Position numbers and translations under genes: made by a program. Below, one piece after another: positions 1,419 through 7,344 of a stretch of DNA of 10,637 nt (positions within the stretch are counted from its first letter, which is position 1; each line of letters starts with the position of its first letter). A model generated the notes under the pieces. It had not been told where the DNA came from, made no database searches, and saw nothing but the letters and a program-made list of their open reading frames with translations. The stretch comes from a virus (Duplodnaviria > Heunggongvirae > Uroviricota > Caudoviricetes): positions 1-10,637 of the IMG/VR virus record IMGVR_UViG_2529292908_000010. One strand, 5' to 3'.

Positions 1419-3890
1419 TTAAAAATCAGCCTGACTCGGGATCAGTTTTTGCCAGATAACTGAAACGTATTTTGCCTGGTAACGGGCGTCATCAAGTGCA
1501 TTATGGCGCTCACCTTCGAATGGAATAGCCGTTCTGGCATCGAAGTCTATGGCTTTCCCCAGCTCAACGATTGTGCGTACATCGCGATCGTTGTAGTAAC
1601 GCCACGGGCAGGGGATCCCCTGCCGTTCGTATGAACGGCGCAAAATCGTGTTTTCGAAGTTGGCTCCATTTCCCCAGACCTGAACAAAAAATTCACCGGA
1701 GTTTTCGTCGATAAATTCCCGCAATTGTAACAGTGCATCATCTAACGGGATTTCATCGGTCATAATGGCAGACTGCGCTTCACGTGATTGCTTCAGCCAC
1801 CTTTTAATGACGTCACGATCAATGACTCCGCCAGCAGTTTCCAGATCGATAGTCTTACTAAATTCCGGTCCCATATCTCCGGTTTGCGGATCGAAAAATA
1901 TTGCATCTATTGAGATAATCGGGGCATCAGGATTTTTGCCCATTGTTTCAAGGTCAATCATCAGATGGTGCCACAACCTGCTGGTGGATGTGCTTTTACG
2001 ATGACCGTTCACCTTAATTAAGGGATTTGCTGTCTCGCCTATTTCATTATTGTCATTGGCATGTTGATCGCCTTCGGTGCACTCCTTGTTCGGGAGTCCG
2101 GCACTTTCTATTTCCTCTGGATCTTTTTCCCGGGCTTCATCCTGGCTTTCTTCGTTGAATGTCTCCTGGTAGGTTGCGTCACCCATCACTGCGCCACAAT
2201 CAGGGCAGTTACCACCACCAGTCTGATTGCATGCGGTACAAACTTTTTCCTCTTCCTGTTGCACGACTGGTTCAGGTTGTTTCGTTTCTGGCTCGTTTTG
2301 TAACGCATTTTGGCTGTTTTGTTCCGCTTTTTGGTCGTACTGTTCCGTTTCTGACTGGTTCTGGTGCACAGAATCGCGGGTTTCAATCCCCTTCACCCAT
2401 TTCGGATCATTCGGGTCGCTAATCCCTTCAACAAATTCACCACGTGATGCAGCGAGCAACTTATTAGCGTCAGGCTGGCTGATACTGGCTGCCTGCATAA
2501 TTTTGTTTACTTCGTCAGCGGTAACTTTTACCAGGTCTGGTTGTGCGGTCGTGTCAGATGCATCAGTATTTTGTTGTGAACCTGTGTATGTGCCGTTTTT
2601 GCGGGCAAAATATTCTTCTTTCGTGATTTCAGTTGCCCCGGCAGCCAGCGCCTTATCCAGACCAGAAAGTTTGTTTGCGCGACCGTATTTTTCGCCATCC
2701 TTGTCGGTGAAGAGGAAGTAGAACGGCCCCTCACGCTCTACAGATGGTTCGACTTCCACTTTGCATTCGGTTTTTTCGTTGTCCGGCATTGCCGTTTCCA
2801 CTGCATCAGCTTCTGGTACTGGCGACGGGAGAGTATTAGTTGTGCTCTGATTTGTTCCTTCATCTTCAAACACGCCCTTTGTAGTCAGGTATTCAGTGAT
2901 GTATTTGTTCAGCGCCACGGGATCTTTGTGAATGTCGATCGGACGTTCACGGACAAGGCCAAAAATAGTCTGACGGTCATAGCCAAGTGCTTCAGGCTGT
3001 TTGCGCATTGATGCCGAGATACGCTTCCAGTCTTCGCGGTCGTTGTCGATAACTTCATTTTTTGCCCAGCGATGGATGCTGCCGTCAATGTTTCCGGCAT
3101 CCACATCACCAGGCCAGAGAGCGTAGGCCAGTTCGTCATCCAGTGTTTTCCATGTCTGCTTGTATTCGCGATGAATGGCAGCAATGACCGGGCTGATTTT
3201 TCCTGTTGAATTTTCAGTGTGCTGTTGATTGGTTCTGGCGCGGGCGAGATCAACAACAGACGTGTATTTTCCTGTTTCCTTGCGTTCACCTTCGCGACGT
3301 TTTTTCCAGATGCGCATCTCTGCCTGAATTTCGGGCCATTTGGCACTAGGCTTACATTTATGCTTAACCCACCCGATGGCATGCAGCTTAAGCTCCGGAT
3401 ACATGGCGTTAACTTCTGGCATTTTCATCAACGCTTCAACGATATGTCCGTCGAATGTTGCCATGTCTTCCTGCAACAATTCCTGTGCGCTAATAACCAT
3501 ATCAACGGTGATGTTTTCACATGTGTCGAACTTAACCATGACAGCGTTCTGTACTTCAGGGGCCAGCTTGTCAAAAGTGACGTTCATCGGATCGGATTCA
3601 GTCTCAACCGGGACAAAGGAAGCAGACTCCTCATCCCAGCGGTTTTCCTGCATATATTCAGCATCCCATGAATCGAGGGCAGGGCGGGGTATGCCAGGTT
3701 TATCCTCGCAGACAATAAATTTATAAGCGCAGTCCTGAGCAGCCGGATAATGTTCCAGGAATTGCCAGTGAAATTTTGCTCGAGCACGGCGTTCGTCGCC
3801 AGCTTCAATGGCTGTGGCTACAGCCACAGCGCCTTCTTCCCTTGTTGCCAGTTCGTCAGGAATAGCGGCGCAAATAAAGACTTTACTCAT
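1419..3890 (-). CDS. Large early-left exonuclease (exodeoxyribonuclease VIII-like) with C-terminal DEDDh/DnaQ-like 3'-5' exonuclease domain and internal Cys4 zinc ribbon
   Basis: 823-aa ORF, ATG at 3890-3888, TAA at 1421-1419. C-terminal motifs MIDLETMG (Exo I), VWGNGANFEN (Exo II-like) and ERHNALDDARYQ (Exo III, H-x4-D). Central C-x2-C-x7-C-x2-C (CTACNQTGGGNCPDC) inside an acidic Q/E/N-rich stretch. Occupies the recE position upstream of xis-int. Family call is from motifs and memory, not a search. Confidence 0.85.
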   Translation of the reverse strand: MSKVFICAAIPDELATREEGAVAVATAIEAGDERRARAKFHWQFLEHYPAAQDCAYKFIVCEDKPGIPRPALDSWDAEYMQENRWDEESASFVPVETESDPMNVTFDKLAPEVQNAVMVKFDTCENITVDMVISAQELLQEDMATFDGHIVEALMKMPEVNAMYPELKLHAIGWVKHKCKPSAKWPEIQAEMRIWKKRREGERKETGKYTSVVDLARARTNQQHTENSTGKISPVIAAIHREYKQTWKTLDDELAYALWPGDVDAGNIDGSIHRWAKNEVIDNDREDWKRISASMRKQPEALGYDRQTIFGLVRERPIDIHKDPVALNKYITEYLTTKGVFEDEGTNQSTTNTLPSPVPEADAVETAMPDNEKTECKVEVEPSVEREGPFYFLFTDKDGEKYGRANKLSGLDKALAAGATEITKEEYFARKNGTYTGSQQNTDASDTTAQPDLVKVTADEVNKIMQAASISQPDANKLLAASRGEFVEGISDPNDPKWVKGIETRDSVHQNQSETEQYDQKAEQNSQNALQNEPETKQPEPVVQQEEEKVCTACNQTGGGNCPDCGAVMGDATYQETFNEESQDEAREKDPEEIESAGLPNKECTEGDQHANDNNEIGETANPLIKVNGHRKSTSTSRLWHHLMIDLETMGKNPDAPIISIDAIFFDPQTGDMGPEFSKTIDLETAGGVIDRDVIKRWLKQSREAQSAIMTDEIPLDDALLQLREFIDENSGEFFVQVWGNGANFENTILRRSYERQGIPCPWRYYNDRDVRTIVELGKAIDFDARTAIPFEGERHNALDDARYQAKYVSVIWQKLIPSQADF

Positions 3891-3985: not shown

Positions 3986-4174
3986 TTATCCAGCCGGTAT
4001 TGCGTTATTCAGGTTCAGCGATACTTTTTTTAACGGGAGGCATTCACCGGGGATTTTTTGTTCGTCCCTTACCTGAATGCAGGATGACTTACTGTCATAA
4101 ATTCCGGTAATCACATTTTGTGGCTCACCCGTTATAAGAAAAACGGTCATCACCAGTGCAAATGCTGAAGTCAC
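3986..4174 (-). CDS. Hypothetical small protein (62 aa), hydrophobic N-terminus
   Basis: ORF with GTG start at 4174-4172 overlapping the upstream stop (GTGA), GGAG 7 nt upstream. N-terminus MTSAFALVMTVFLITG is hydrophobic. No recognisable family; AT-rich context. Confidence 0.4.
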   Translation of the reverse strand: MTSAFALVMTVFLITGEPQNVITGIYDSKSSCIQVRDEQKIPGECLPLKKVSLNLNNAIPAG

Positions 4175-4359
4175 TGCTGTTCTCCGATAATACCAAGTTC
4201 AAGAAGGGCAATTCTGGAAAGTATGGAATTATCATTGAGAAGATAAGGTTCATATTTTCTCATCTTAATGGCATCTTCCGTAAACTCCCGGTTACTGAGC
4301 AGAACACCAATATCAAAACAACCTTCAGACGTATTAACGTTTGGTAATAACGTTTCCAT
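4171..4359 (-). CDS. Hypothetical small protein (62 aa)
   Basis: ATG at 4359-4357 with GAGGA 7 nt upstream; stop overlaps the start of the next ORF. No recognisable family. Confidence 0.45.
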   Translation of the reverse strand: METLLPNVNTSEGCFDIGVLLSNREFTEDAIKMRKYEPYLLNDNSILSRIALLELGIIGEQQ

Positions 4360-4376
4360 TATCGCGTCCTCAACAA

Positions 4377-4537
4377 TGAATTTTGTGATGCGGTGCCTGG
4401 TGCCTCCAGGTGACGTTAACCAGTTAACAATTAACGCCGGAATACAGAAGGATGCCCGTTACGCCCCGTAAAAGACCACTTTACGGTTTTAACTGTTCCG
4501 CGTGCGCATAGCCGCATTCACCGCATCACAAAATTCA
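4377..4537. repeat. Perfect 19-bp inverted repeat pair flanking a 123-bp palindrome-rich segment
   Basis: TGAATTTTGTGATGCGGTG at 4377-4395 and its exact reverse complement CACCGCATCACAAAATTCA at 4519-4537. Interior holds further palindromes (CCTGG-tgcct-CCAGG at 4396-4410; GTTAAC-cag-TTAAC at 4415-4428). Confidence 0.7.
4466..4490 (+). terminator. Terminator-like hairpin followed by TTTT (plus strand)
   Basis: CCGTAAA (4466-4472) pairs with TTTACGG (4480-4486), 7-nt loop, then TTTT at 4487-4490. Stem is AU-rich and no confident plus-strand gene lies upstream. Confidence 0.25.
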
Positions 4538-4835
4538 CTTTAAAAAGGGTGGCAGAGCAGTCACGGAGTAGAACTGATGCCACCAAATACTACACATGGG
4601 TATTGTGGCGGGGCTGTCACTTAAGCGTATGGTCAACCTGACGACCCGGTGCATTTTCTGGAGCAATGGAGGAAGCCCCAGCCATACTTACCGCCGCGCC
4701 ATTTCGCGGACTGCCACAACCGGAAGTGCACGGTCGAAGAAATTTAACGACAAGCCTTATATGCAAAGGAATCTCGCCGTGCGCTTTCGTGTTGTGTGCC
4801 TGCTTTTAACCACGTCAGGCGAGGTGGTTTCCGTC

Positions 4836-4864
4836 ATTCCCCAATAACAGGAAATCTGTATAAT
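4836..4864 (+). promoter_or_regulatory. Putative sigma70 promoter for the rightward membrane-protein gene
   Basis: Perfect -10 TATAAT at 4859-4864 preceded directly by TG; -35 is poor (ATTCCC/TTCCCC). Lies 35 bp upstream of the SD-ATG at 4898. Confidence 0.3.
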
Positions 4865-4897
4865 CTGGATATCCCCAACAACAGGAAGGTGTTTTAT

Positions 4898-5056
4898 ATG
4901 GTGGTTCAAAAGAATTGTTCAGGTACTGGTAAGCCTGCGGACAGGGCGGACATTCCGAATACCAGGAAACATATACCTGAGAAAAACATTCGACCAAAAC
5001 CATCTCCAGCTCCTTCAGAGGAGAGGGGGAACAGCAACAATCAAACAAGCAGGTGA
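4898..5056 (+). CDS. Hypothetical small hydrophilic protein (52 aa)
   Basis: ATG at 4898 with AGGAAGG 8 nt upstream; stop 7 nt before the next ATG. Pro-rich, low-complexity product and not in the track under this start, so it may instead be a leader region. Confidence 0.3.
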   Translation: MVVQKNCSGTGKPADRADIPNTRKHIPEKNIRPKPSPAPSEERGNSNNQTSR

Positions 5057-5062
5057 TGATAT

Positions 5063-5509
5063 ATGGACCGGGATGATATTCTTGACAGGGTTTTATATGG
5101 TTATTTTCTTGAACAACTATTCTCTGTAGCGACTGGTCGTCTCGATAAACTTTTCTCAGTGGTGAGTATTATCCTCGGTTCATCTGTCATTGGTGGATTT
5201 ATTCCTGAAGTTTCTGGAGTTCTCATCGTTGTGATAGCAACCGTTCAAACGATTTACGGATTCGGACAAAAGTCAGGTAACGCAATGAGAAAATCCGCAG
5301 AATATCTGCAGCTTTATGATGATGCAGAAAAATATTCCGATTCGGAATTGAAAATGCAGTTAAAGCTCCTGGAAAAAACAGATGATAATATTTGGTCGTC
5401 GCTTAAAGATATCGCAATCTTAAAAACCCAGATCAAAATAGGAATCTCCGTAGAACAACAAGAGAAACTGTCTGCAAAATCCAAATTGATGCGATTCCTT
5501 TGTGGTTAG
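5063..5509 (+). CDS. Small membrane protein, putative superinfection-exclusion / abortive-infection protein (SieB-like by architecture and position)
   Basis: 148-aa ORF, ATG at 5063 with AGGTGA 6 nt upstream. Two predicted TM helices (LFSVVSIILGSSVIGGFI; VLIVVIATVQTIYGF) then a charged helical tail. Rightward gene set among leftward early genes, as sieB is in lambda/Rac. Confidence 0.7.
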   Translation: MDRDDILDRVLYGYFLEQLFSVATGRLDKLFSVVSIILGSSVIGGFIPEVSGVLIVVIATVQTIYGFGQKSGNAMRKSAEYLQLYDDAEKYSDSELKMQLKLLEKTDDNIWSSLKDIAILKTQIKIGISVEQQEKLSAKSKLMRFLCG

Positions 5510-5607
5510 GAATACCCAGATTGTTAAAGAGCATGCCGAATGCTTACCCGTGTCCGGCGAACGTATTCCACTTCGCCTGTGGAGAACTCTTTAATTACTA
5601 ACCTTCA

Positions 5608-5760
5608 TCAGTCAGAGTTTCTTGCTAACCAGCGATGCGCGCCAGCTTCAGTTTTAAACGTTTTGCTTCTGGTATACGTCATCGCGGTAAACGTGCCGTC
5701 CTGGTTAGGGAACACACCACATACCAGAGATTCGTTGTTGCCAAGATTGAGCATATCCAT
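5608..5760 (-). CDS. Small hypothetical prophage protein (50 aa), YdaF/YdfA-like by size and position
   Basis: ATG at 5760-5758 with GAGG 5 nt upstream, TGA at 5610-5608. Product MDMLNLGNNESLVCGVFPNQDGTFTAMTYTRSKTFKTEAGAHRWLARNSD is not compositionally biased. Below the 60-aa track cutoff; translated by hand. Confidence 0.45.
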   Translation of the reverse strand: MDMLNLGNNESLVCGVFPNQDGTFTAMTYTRSKTFKTEAGAHRWLARNSD

Positions 5761-5984: not shown

Positions 5985-6010
5985 GTAAATAACCCCCTTT
6001 TGAGAGGGGG
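5985..6010 (-). terminator. Rho-independent terminator of the repressor/toxin-antitoxin operon
   Basis: Minus strand: GC-rich stem CCCCCT/AGGGGG (6010-5993) followed by UUAUUUA (5992-5986), 16 nt after the parE stop. Confidence 0.55.
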
Positions 6011-6025: not shown

Positions 6026-6313
6026 TTAAGGTGTTACAGGGAACTGTCGGCGGGCGTGAACTACGTTAACAATTTCAATGCCTGAAATTGTCACGCGGTA
6101 CAGTATTATGTAATTGGGGTGGGCTACAATTTCACGTAAACCGGGTACTCTGTCGCTTGGCGGGTATAAATACGGATGCTCAGATAATGGCAGAACGCAA
6201 GTCCTTAAGCGTTTCCACAAACGTTCTGCCGCATCTATGTCAAAACGTGCAATATAGCTGGTTATCTCATCTAGGTCGGTATCTGCGCTTTCAAGCCATA
6301 ACACGGGTAACAT
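6026..6313 (-). CDS. parE: ParE/RelE-superfamily toxin (ParE2-like)
   Basis: 95-aa ORF with RelE/ParE hallmarks (REIVAHPNYIILYRV...IEIVNVVHARR). ATG at 6313-6311 abuts the stop of the upstream antitoxin gene (TAA-ATG). Confidence 0.9.
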   Translation of the reverse strand: MLPVLWLESADTDLDEITSYIARFDIDAAERLWKRLRTCVLPLSEHPYLYPPSDRVPGLREIVAHPNYIILYRVTISGIEIVNVVHARRQFPVTP

Positions 6314-6505
6314 TTACTGTTTGCTCCGTTCCTTGCGCATTTTTGCAAAGCGTTCTGCCATTCTGCGTTCAACTTCGTCATGAGGAATAGCTGGACGTGG
6401 ATCAGCTAGGCTCGCGGCCACTTTTGCACGCAACCATTGGTTATAACTATTTTCTTGCTCGACGGTTTCAAATTCAGAAACCATTGGTGAAAGGGCTGTG
6501 TTCAT
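6314..6505 (-). CDS. paaA2: PaaA2-like antitoxin
   Basis: 63-aa ORF directly upstream of and coupled to parE, GAGG 6 nt before the ATG. Sequence (MNTALSPMVSEFETVEQENSYNQWLRAKVAASLADPRPAIPHDEVERRMAERFAKMRKERSKQ) matches my recollection of E. coli O157 PaaA2; recollection unverified. Confidence 0.8.
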   Translation of the reverse strand: MNTALSPMVSEFETVEQENSYNQWLRAKVAASLADPRPAIPHDEVERRMAERFAKMRKERSKQ

Positions 6506-6542: not shown

Positions 6543-6716
6543 CTAGGTAACTTTCTGTTGTGCTTCTAGCCACCTTGCAACTATACGATCCATTGCCTCT
6601 TTTTTCTCCTTCATATCTTTTAGCATTTGCTGTTGATCTTCCTCTGGAAATGCGTCAAATGTTTGAAGTAGTTCTTTTTGCCTAGGGGTTATTTTTAATA
6701 TACCCTGTGCCCTGTC
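6543..6716 (-). other. -1-frame continuation encoding the C-terminal domain of the PaaR2-like regulator
   Basis: From the slippery site the -1 frame reads DRAQGILKITPRQKELLQTFDAFPEEDQQQMLKDMKEKKEAMDRIVARWLEAQQKVT*, homologous to the C-terminal domain of the 6925..7338 gene. This frame opens only 4 codons before the slip site and has no usable start. Confidence 0.5.
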
Positions 6717-6937
6717 TTTTTTTCTTCATTTAATGGTAAGAAAAACCAATACTGAGGAAATCCCGTTACTTCAGATAGTTTATCTAGATTAGCTGCTGTA
6801 GGGCTTGAGATACCACAAACCCACCTTTGGACGGATTGTTGAGCAATACCAATTCTGCGCGCAAGTTCTGCTTGACTCCAGCCTTTTGTCAATAGAAGCA
6901 TCTTAATTCTAAGAGCACTAATTTCTAGTACGCCCAT
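6695..6937 (-). CDS. XRE-family HTH regulator, N-terminal part of a PaaR2-like regulator
   Basis: 80-aa ORF with classic XRE motif (LTKGWSQAELARRIGIAQQSVQRWVCG), first gene upstream of the antitoxin. Ends 5 codons after an A_AAA_AAG heptamer, beyond which the conserved C-terminal domain continues in the -1 frame. Confidence 0.75.
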   Translation of the reverse strand: MGVLEISALRIKMLLLTKGWSQAELARRIGIAQQSVQRWVCGISSPTAANLDKLSEVTGFPQYWFFLPLNEEKKTGHRVY

Positions 6938-7338
6938 TTGATATCTCTTGTTTTAGTATGTCTCTCGTCAGGCTCGGCGACCTTGCTGCGCCAACCAACG
7001 TGCAACAAGATCTTCCATTGCCTCTTTTTGTTTCTTAGTTCTTTTATGATCTCCTGCTGCTCATTATCAGGAAATGCACTAAATATTTGTAGCAATTCCA
7101 ATTGGTTAGGGGTTAATGCTATAGGTCTTGATGGCGGAGCTCCTGTTATGTCTTCTGGCTCAATATCAAGATAACCCCCTGGCATCCCATATGTTTGTTC
7201 AATACGTCTAGCCGCCTTTTCGCCAAACGTAGCTTTACCGCTCATTAATTGAGATAAGTAACTTTTCTCTTTAGGTGGCAAAGTCCTGTCTTTGAACCAC
7301 TCTTTGAGGCGTAAACGCCGAATCTCTTTTGTTTCCAT
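6925..7338 (-). CDS. Repressor-position HTH regulator (cI/RacR positional analogue), paralogous to the PaaR2-like regulator
   Basis: 137-aa ORF from ATG 7338 (track starts at GTG 7344), divergent from the Cro-like gene. N-terminal phage-repressor-like HTH (SYLSQLMSGKATFGEKAARRIEQTYGMPGGYLD); C-terminal domain (TPNQLELLQIFSAFPDNEQQEIIKELRNKK) homologous to the 6543..6716 segment. No SD, consistent with leaderless translation. Confidence 0.8.
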   Translation of the reverse strand: METKEIRRLRLKEWFKDRTLPPKEKSYLSQLMSGKATFGEKAARRIEQTYGMPGGYLDIEPEDITGAPPSRPIALTPNQLELLQIFSAFPDNEQQEIIKELRNKKRQWKILLHVGWRSKVAEPDERHTKTRDIKWAY

Positions 7339-7344
7339 ATACAC

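Follow-up and report, generated by a model that had tools for sequence, protein, structure and literature searches.

The window analysed here is the whole 10,637-nucleotide (nt) stretch of the IMG/VR virus record IMGVR_UViG_2529292908_000010, which is the early region of an Escherichia coli lambdoid prophage of the Qin/Rac type. Within this region, two adjacent genes read rightward: a gene for a 52-amino-acid (aa), proline-rich peptide (4898-5056, + strand), and a gene for a 148-aa inner-membrane protein (5063-5509, + strand). The first-pass annotation of this DNA placed the membrane-protein gene against a series of leftward early genes, and this is what we find, the flanking genes all being located on the minus strand, namely, a DUF1482/ydfD-like gene (3986-4174), dicB (4171-4359), the small RNA (sRNA) DicF (4547-4598; 62 bits in Rfam) and a DUF1391/ydfA-like gene (5608-5760). 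Directly downstream of DicF, there is a sub-threshold Rfam match to STnc100 (4382-4535, minus strand; 36.5 bits against a gathering score of 47, E = 5e-6). Because the DicF and STnc100-like matches are both on the minus strand, the two rightward genes are embedded antisense in the dicB/DicF operon.

Relative to the Qin prophage of E. coli K-12, the two genes belong to an insertion or replacement that spans positions 4808-5546 (+ strand), hereinafter the cassette. Comparison with the Qin region of NC_000913, by BLAST and by hand, showed that the K-12 ydfC-dicF spacer is collinear with the flanks at 4248-4807 and 5536-5605; ydfB and ydfC are absent. The GC content of the cassette is 0.41 compared to 0.47 for the window. 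Near-identical DNA is present in E. coli chromosomes, where the small open reading frame (ORF) is not annotated, and the cassette was detected in 91 of the 5426 complete E. coli genomes (1.7%; chromosomes only). In every context inspected, across six genera, it is oriented opposite to the neighbouring phage genes. The cassette often adjoins a repressor gene, for example, next to cI, and in phage EKP1 it is located between Q and the holin gene (locus L095, 3347-3941). The Q-holin interval is a classic site of stx and other morons. Phage EKP1 is labelled as an Elizabethkingia phage but carries typical enterobacterial lambdoid lysis genes, so that the host label may deserve checking.

A slot and a control region shared with sieB

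The arrangement had been likened to that of sieB in lambda and Rac, and this comparison is upheld by the slot, the orientation and the alignment of the upstream regions. In Rac, sieB is on the + strand, in the gene order kilR, kilS sRNA, sieB and the DUF1391 gene ydaF; in lambda, sieB is transcribed rightward between ral and N. The cassette, placed between DicF/dicB and the DUF1391 gene, occupies the same slot as Rac sieB. Upstream of the peptide gene, a block of approximately 100 nt is homologous to, and collinear with, the regions upstream of sieB in P22, lambda and Rac. All these blocks share the same order of elements, that is, an element with two complementary pairs (S1/S2), the first copy of a direct repeat, a -10 sequence of the form TAnnnT and the second copy of the repeat, and the Shine-Dalgarno (SD) sequence is aligned as well. 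The mean column identity of the upstream block is about 64% compared to about 25% identity among the proteins of the family. No Rfam family matched the block. The early-left operon of this prophage thus appears to include a rightward gene with a sieB-type promoter region.

The S1/S2 element (4798-4827), which is also present upstream of P22, lambda and Rac sieB, consists of two interleaved complementary pairs, S1 (GCCTG at 4798-4802 with CAGGC at 4816-4820) and S2 (CCAC at 4810-4813 with GTGG at 4824-4827). Both pairs are maintained through two-sided changes. S1 takes the form GCCGGG/CCCGGC in a Serratia locus (L008), GCCCGG/CCGGGC in Rac and GCTGAT/ATCAGC in a Vibrio locus (L010), and S2 is CTAC/GTAG in L002 and L093, CCAG/CTGG in L010, and CCTCA/TGAGG in a Providencia locus (L094). 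An H-type pseudoknot formed by S1 and S2 was considered and is unlikely in L008, where one loop would consist of a single nucleotide.

The first copy of the direct repeat, CCCCAATAACA (4839-4849, + strand), lies over the -35 zone, and the second, CCCCAACAACA (4873-4883, + strand), at the predicted 5' end of the mRNA; in most loci of the family, the two copies are 33-34 bp apart. The repeat reads CCCCTACAG in P22, lambda and Rac sieB, ACCACAACG in Providencia and GCGAYCCAATA in Vibrio. The two copies change in concert between lineages (the window and loci L097, L049, L096, L094 and L010), which suggests either a shared recognition factor or gene conversion. Altogether, the sieB loci and the cassette are alike in the slot, the orientation against the early-left operon and the upstream control block, but differ in the repeats, CCCCTACAG in the former and CCCCAACAACA in the latter.

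The -10 region (4859-4866, + strand) includes TATAAT (4859-4864) that overlaps TAATCT (4861-4866). The latter is located 2 nt to the right, has four bases in common with TATAAT and aligns with TAAACT, the -10 sequence of P22 psieB; across 20 diverse loci, the T and A at 4861-4862 never vary, and the T at 4866 hardly does. The promoter with a perfect -10 proposed in the first-pass annotation is therefore retained in part: TATAAT is present, but homology favours TAATCT, and there is no consensus -35. A scan of the window for sigma-70 consensus promoters found none because there is no good -35. In the P22 record BK000583, the sieB promoter (29690-29720) and the RNA start (29727, the base just before the second repeat) are annotated at positions that match the block in the window. 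By alignment with P22, transcription of the cassette would start at about position 4872.

The complement of the conserved block, from the start codon of the small ORF back to S1/S2 (4797-4900, minus strand), is a candidate region for an antisense RNA. In P22, sieB is controlled by sas, a 105-nt cis-antisense RNA, through a SieB/Esc translation switch (PMC12197685; bioRxiv 10.1101/787010). The conserved block at 4797-4900, of about 104 nt, has the length and position expected for a sas-like RNA. Two single-side helix changes (in L093 and L050) are compatible with pairing, as G.U, only on the minus strand. The coordinates of sas, and its origin by processing of the PL transcript, were reportedly described by Ranade and Poteete in Genes Dev in 1993.

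The other end of the cassette is also conserved. Directly after the stop codon of the membrane-protein gene, there is a 23-nt motif, GAATACCCAGATTGTTAAAGAGC (5510-5532, + strand; family consensus GGATATCCAGATTGTTAAAGAGC), the first 13 nt of which (5510-5522) are an inverted copy of AATCTGGATATCC at -10/+1 (4862-4874). In 17 of 22 loci of the family, this motif is found once, on the + strand, after the last ORF of the cassette. It was also detected in 7 of 109 hairpin-element loci (among the matches listed) and in none of 99 upstream controls; given this low count of hairpin-element loci, the motif was rejected as a general boundary of the socket. An invertible switch based on the inverted repeats at 4862-4874 and 5510-5522 was rejected as well because all of the more than 80 loci have the same orientation. 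If transcription read through leftward, the inverted copies in the transcript might base-pair with each other over the full length of the cassette.

The control element precedes genes of many kinds. A 31-nt pattern for it was matched in at least 120 IMG/VR stretches and in 144 deposited phage records, including lambda and P22. Among the matches listed, the ORFs that follow the element in 117 loci form 38 clusters, some of them spurious. SieB accounts for 25-26 of these loci, a coiled-coil/zinc-ribbon protein for 16, an 81-aa protein for 14, a 76-aa zinc-ribbon protein for 10 and the SLATT-like family described below for 2, and there are many other clusters. The coiled-coil/zinc-ribbon protein is also encoded behind the element in phage PhiR29_2 (L098, about 2600-3116). 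The sieB control region is, then, a reusable module with different payloads, so that a search behind the 31-nt element could reveal further prophage defence genes, and the loci with this element are a possible hotspot of uncharacterised genes expressed in the lysogen.

Regulatory sRNAs adjoin the slot in several backbones, namely, DicF in the window, kilS in Rac, and C4 or IsrK in two relatives. Just left of the cassette, Rfam matches to the C4 antisense RNA were found in L002 from Salmonella (4008-4095, minus strand) and in L003 from E. coli (4044-4131, minus strand), and a match to IsrK was found only in L003 (4156-4232, minus strand).

The cassette is best explained as an accessory "moron" of two genes, located in the sieB slot of a Qin/Rac-like lambdoid prophage. 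It is a discrete insertion of low GC content, with a predicted sieB-type promoter and a patchy spread, and it occurs in several unrelated backbones and positions. Like other morons and the contents of defence hotspots (rexAB, the P2/P4 hotspots and bor/lom-type genes), it is self-contained, has a lower GC content and is set against the flanking operons, and, as is the case for other morons, its control element precedes many alternative cargo ORFs in other phages. Unlike other morons, it shows no clear intrinsic terminator and has a conserved right-end motif inverted from -10/+1; furthermore, if the analogy with sas holds, its control block may confer a built-in antisense self-immunity, which is not a general feature of morons.

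The membrane protein and its likeness to SLATT proteins

The SD sequence of the membrane-protein gene, AGGTGA (5051-5056), lies 6 nt before the ATG, where it overlaps the end of the peptide gene (final sense codon and stop codon). The 148-aa ORF corresponds to WP_000373333.1, which is annotated only as "hypothetical protein", and the protein belongs to PHROG 6315 (6e-24), with no function assigned there. The initial description of a 148-aa protein with two transmembrane (TM) helices is confirmed by the ORF itself, by hydrophobicity and by an AlphaFold2 model. Kyte-Doolittle hydropathy and the structure model indicate hydrophobic segments at about residues 30-47 and 50-67, with a tight Pro-Glu turn between them. 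Basic residues are found on both cytoplasmic sides of this hairpin (R26/K29 and K70/R76/K77), indicating an N-in/C-in topology. The model used was obtained with a 111-sequence alignment (predicted local distance difference test, pLDDT, 90.3; predicted TM-score, pTM, 0.79) and replaced a poor one obtained with 7 close sequences (pLDDT 57.7). It includes helices at 3-44, 48-65, 67-86, 93-105, 113-126 and 138-147, so that the cytoplasmic C-terminal tail, of about 80 residues, is built of short helices. The charged, coiled-coil-like tail proposed at first is thus helical, but several short helices were modelled rather than a single long coil.

An exhaustive HMMER search with a 7-sequence profile retrieved 145 cluster representatives at E<=1e-3 (clusters counted at 50% identity). 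Nearly all of these relatives are full-length and 150-170 aa long, which makes this a family of stand-alone small proteins, with about 25% identity among its members. A word-indexed search retrieved 23 relatives, all enterobacterial. No match was found for the window protein in Pfam, PADLOC or PDB sequences, or for the family profile in PDB sequences, and an alignment-based locus search of species-representative genomes found no related loci. The absence of a PADLOC match to the window protein does not bear out a similarity to known defence or abortive-infection (Abi) models.

Homology to SieB, which the sieB-like arrangement had brought to mind, was not borne out either. The window protein does not match PF14163 (no Pfam match at E<=0.1), whereas lambda SieB, used as a control, matches this model at 1e-29; comparison of the 111-sequence family profile with lambda SieB by hhalign gave a probability of 0.2%, and BLASTP against lambda SieB gave only E = 6.2. 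SieB and the protein of the cassette are both small, with two TM helices in the N-terminal half and a cytoplasmic tail. Given the failures of the SieB model and of hhalign, we conclude that the two share the slot, the control region and a similar architecture but belong to separate protein families. They also differ in genetic organisation: SieB is encoded by one gene with an internal Esc start, whereas the cassette consists of two cistrons, for the peptide and the membrane protein. Met75 was considered as an Esc-like internal start, but this residue is not conserved, and the idea was rejected.

A different relationship emerged from comparison of the family members with domain models. Among the 111 family members, 44 match the NCBIfam model SLATT_4 (best E = 2.2e-5), 14 match SLATT_1 (best E = 4.5e-5) and 3 match SLATT_fungal, all under the curated cutoffs. 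In total, SLATT models match 40% of the members, and no other family matches more than 6 of the 111. In member P0165, the match is near full length, covering positions 20-126 of 132 in SLATT_1 and 18-137 of 154 in SLATT_4. The PADLOC model of the 2TM effector of the cyclic oligonucleotide-based antiphage signalling system (CBASS) matches 9 members, and that of the SLATT protein associated with reverse transcriptase (RT) matches 7. The SieB proteins, which also have two TM helices and served as a negative control against composition bias, gave no SLATT matches. In a Foldseek search of BFVD, a database of predicted viral structures, 10 of the top 16 matches are named SLATT or SMODS-and-SLOG-associating 2TM, with probabilities of 0.8-1.0, query TM-scores up to 0.67 and E-values of 0.017-0.12. 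SLATT proteins are reportedly defined, following Burroughs and colleagues in 2015, by two central TM helices with flanking N- and C-terminal helices; this organisation is present in the AlphaFold2 model. The search of PDB found no solved SLATT structure and no specific relative of the family. When P0165, the most SLATT-like member, was used as the query for bona fide SLATT proteins, only its close relatives were retrieved, and the family profile search returned only unannotated members of the family. On balance, it seems quite probable that the family is a distant, unclassified branch of the SLATT superfamily.

SLATT effectors are the two-TM, SMODS/SLOG-associated proteins of CBASS-like systems, of the defence-associated reverse transcriptase (DRT) systems DRT3 and DRT10, and others. 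They resemble the proteins of this family in the central two-TM hairpin, the flanking N- and C-terminal helices, the protein size and the location on mobile elements with defence genes. In contrast, SLATT effectors usually have a partner enzyme or SLOG protein, whereas the one conserved partner of this family is a proline-rich peptide of 23-52 aa and the cassette lies under a predicted sieB-type promoter. SLATT proteins are indispensable to validated defence systems, for example, DRT10, for which the way in which they are switched on is stated to be an open question (bioRxiv 10.64898/2026.04.29.721553).

The proline-rich peptide gene

The short, proline-rich ORF upstream of the membrane-protein gene, with its strong SD sequence, is present as first described (4898-5056; AGGAAGG at 4883-4889, 8 nt before the ATG) and encodes a peptide with the core RKHIPEKNIRPKPSPAP. 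Of 37 distinct regions upstream of the membrane-protein gene, 34 contain such an ORF, which ends 3-18 nt before the second ATG; they come from Escherichia, Salmonella, Enterobacter, Serratia, Providencia and Vibrio, and from the one phage labelled Elizabethkingia. The peptides, from 23 to 52 aa long, share the core [EK][KR]H-x-P...[RK]P-x-x-P-P, usually followed by K, E or D. They match no Pfam or PHROG family; the peptide is annotated as a gene in phages PSTNGR2lys and EKP1. The pooled ratio of nonsynonymous to synonymous differences (pN/pS, from Nei-Gojobori counts) for the peptide gene is 0.29. Within clades, pS is 0.5-0.75 compared to pN of 0.03-0.2 (for example, 0.55 and 0.05, respectively, between L005 and L050). 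These low ratios indicate that the amino acid sequence is under purifying selection. In the metagenomic locus L093, the proline-rich motif (about 2899-2990) is out of frame with the start codon owing to an A6/A7 run; either a sequencing error or a frameshift could account for this break.

In the Enterobacter clade, one or two extra ORFs with the motif H-V-P-P-K-P-R-P-P-A-P-K are located downstream of the membrane-protein gene (4473-4556 in L005 and L006; 3473-3541 and 3553-3633 in L050; also present in L052, L064, L071, L072, L075, L088, L090 and L091). The extra peptides are cationic, as in MSKPAPLIPNHVPPKPRPPAKK, and their composition resembles that of proline-rich antimicrobial peptides.

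These observations bear on whether the ORF is a leader or encodes a real partner of the membrane protein, the two possibilities raised in the first-pass annotation. In the former case, the proline run would pause ribosomes in a manner dependent on elongation factor P (EF-P) and set the output of the membrane protein by coupling, with the peptide itself having no function. Proline-proline stretches are indeed found near the end of the ORF, a few codons short of the stop codon, which the downstream SD overlaps, and locus L003 has eight consecutive prolines. However, residues other than proline (E/K, K/R and H) are conserved as well, pN/pS is about 0.29, and the H-x-P-P-K-P-R-P-P paralogues downstream of the membrane-protein gene cannot serve as leaders. 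The presence of ORFs with the same motif at that position is incompatible with a pure leader role, which we therefore regard as improbable; the evidence favours a partner.

One kind of partner is an antitoxin. Under this alternative, the cassette would be a toxin-antitoxin or addiction module, with a membrane toxin and a labile, proline-rich antitoxin, that keeps the prophage stable or is triggered by a shutdown of host translation. Consistent with such a module, the two small genes are predicted to be co-transcribed, with a short, hydrophilic product encoded first and a potential membrane toxin second, and the spacing of only 3-18 nt between the peptide stop codon and the second ATG implies that their translation is tightly linked. 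The evidence to the contrary comes from natural deletions. In 6 of 36 loci of the E. coli clade (IMG/VR prophages L035-L037, L043, L044 and L047), the peptide core is deleted between CAAGCAGGTG microhomologies, and 5 of these 6 loci retain an intact 148-aa ORF, which speaks against an indispensable antitoxin, with the reservation that the deletion may also lower downstream translation. The extra peptide copies downstream of the membrane-protein gene in the Enterobacter clade, and the absence of a match to any toxin-antitoxin family in Pfam, NCBIfam and PADLOC, also argue against this explanation, which we consider slightly less likely still than a leader function.

Possible function of the cassette and its surroundings

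By our estimate, with a probability of roughly 0.55, the cassette functions in prophage exclusion or abortive infection and is silenced by leftward antisense transcription during the lytic growth of its own phage. This proposal builds on the genomic context and on the distant SLATT-like relationship. In the lysogen, the cassette would be transcribed from the sieB-type promoter, starting near 4872, and the peptide and the membrane protein would be produced from one mRNA, with translational linkage of the cistrons suggested by the overlap of the second SD with the end of the first ORF. On infection by another phage, the membrane protein would oligomerise and permeabilise or depolarise the inner membrane, and this damage would abort the infection, as proposed for SLATT effectors and as seen phenotypically with SieB. 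The peptide might act as a cofactor, sensor or gate rather than as an essential antitoxin. When the resident prophage enters lytic growth, transcripts initiated leftward at the early-left promoter would run antisense through the whole cassette, and a sas-like RNA complementary to the leader and the start codon would turn the cassette off, so that the phage would avoid excluding itself.

Several results weigh against this proposal. With respect to the SLATT relationship, the match of the window protein to SLATT_4 is weak (E = 0.014, 15.2 bits against a cutoff of 55), none of the 111 family members reaches a curated NCBIfam SLATT cutoff, the Pfam models SLATT_1 to SLATT_6 match 0 of the 111, and the Foldseek E-values for the SLATT matches are only 0.02-0.1; the negative PADLOC result for the window protein adds to these. 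No nucleotide cyclase, SLOG, RT or TIR gene was found within 4-5 kb of the cassette in the contexts covered (E. coli, Salmonella, Enterobacter, Serratia, Vibrio, Providencia and phage EKP1). With respect to regulation, there is no intrinsic terminator on the + strand after the membrane-protein gene before 5993, and the folding energy of the cassette upstream elements is no better than that of shuffled sequences. Single-sequence folding z-scores are not significant except in P22, and the consensus energies from RNAalifold are weak on both strands; a stable structured RNA is thus unsupported, and just the two short covarying helices are supported. Because folding is no better than for shuffles, the antisense RNA is something that we infer, and its processing, like the putative transcription start, is predicted from homology and from earlier work on sas. 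Finally, the searchable literature (on the gene, on SLATT proteins in prophages or exclusion, and on sieB hotspots) contains no paper on the gene or its peptide partner.

The sub-threshold nature of all the SLATT evidence leaves room for a role outside defence, in which the membrane protein would be a lysogenic-conversion or membrane-physiology gene, acting in envelope stress, division or lysis timing, and the SLATT signals would reflect convergent features of a hairpin. The location of the cassette in the dicB/DicF operon, with its link to division, fits such a role, and the module of hairpin and promoter precedes many unrelated small ORFs, so that the slot is not proven to be reserved for defence. 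Nevertheless, the sieB exclusion gene is the only characterised occupant of this slot and control module, SLATT models match 40% of the family while no other family matches more than 6 of the 111 members, and the two-TM SieB controls have no SLATT matches. The cassette is also found outside the dicB operon, for instance, next to cI or between Q and the holin gene. We consider a non-defence role unlikely.

A more specific version of the exclusion proposal, which we advance only tentatively and regard as rather unlikely in full, is that the cassette encodes a minimal SLATT-type effector regulated by a ribosomally made proline-rich peptide (H-x-P...R-P-P-x-P-P-K), not by a nucleotide or cDNA signal, within a sieB-type promoter/antisense socket that gives self-immunity. 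The peptide could then gate the pore or have a target of its own in the cytoplasm, for instance, DnaK or the ribosome exit tunnel. In other phages, a dozen or more unrelated cargo families follow this socket, which would give any cargo automatic self-immunity while the prophage itself grows lytically.

If the exclusion proposal is correct, the cassette is an anti-phage system of about 740 bp with a SLATT-like membrane effector that lacks an enzyme partner, and a two-component version, with a peptide and a pore, would be a simple system for studying SLATT gating. The proposed sas-like silencing suggests how prophages escape killing by their own exclusion genes. The family, with approximately 145 clusters, is annotated only as "hypothetical protein", and the peptide gene mostly lacks any annotation. 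Prophage exclusion cassettes and SLATT-type effectors are known already, whereas no description of the gene family or of its peptide partner was found in the searchable literature.

In the rest of the window, the minus strand carries genes for an integrase (1-1119; window ORF list and library matches), an excisionase and an 823-aa early-left exonuclease (1419-3890). The latter has a C-terminal Rv2179c-like 3'-5' exoribonuclease domain (E = 1e-60) and a long N-terminal region that is acidic, rich in Q and E, and without annotation. To the right of the DUF1391 gene, a bidirectional terminator-like hairpin is located at 5993-6010 and is followed, before the immunity region, by genes for a ParE-family toxin (95 aa) and a PaaA2/RelB-type antitoxin (63 aa) (6026-6505, minus strand). 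A frameshifted repressor at 6695-7344 was considered and rejected because the immunity region of the window simply differs from that of locus L001; beyond the immunity region lie the rightward replication genes.

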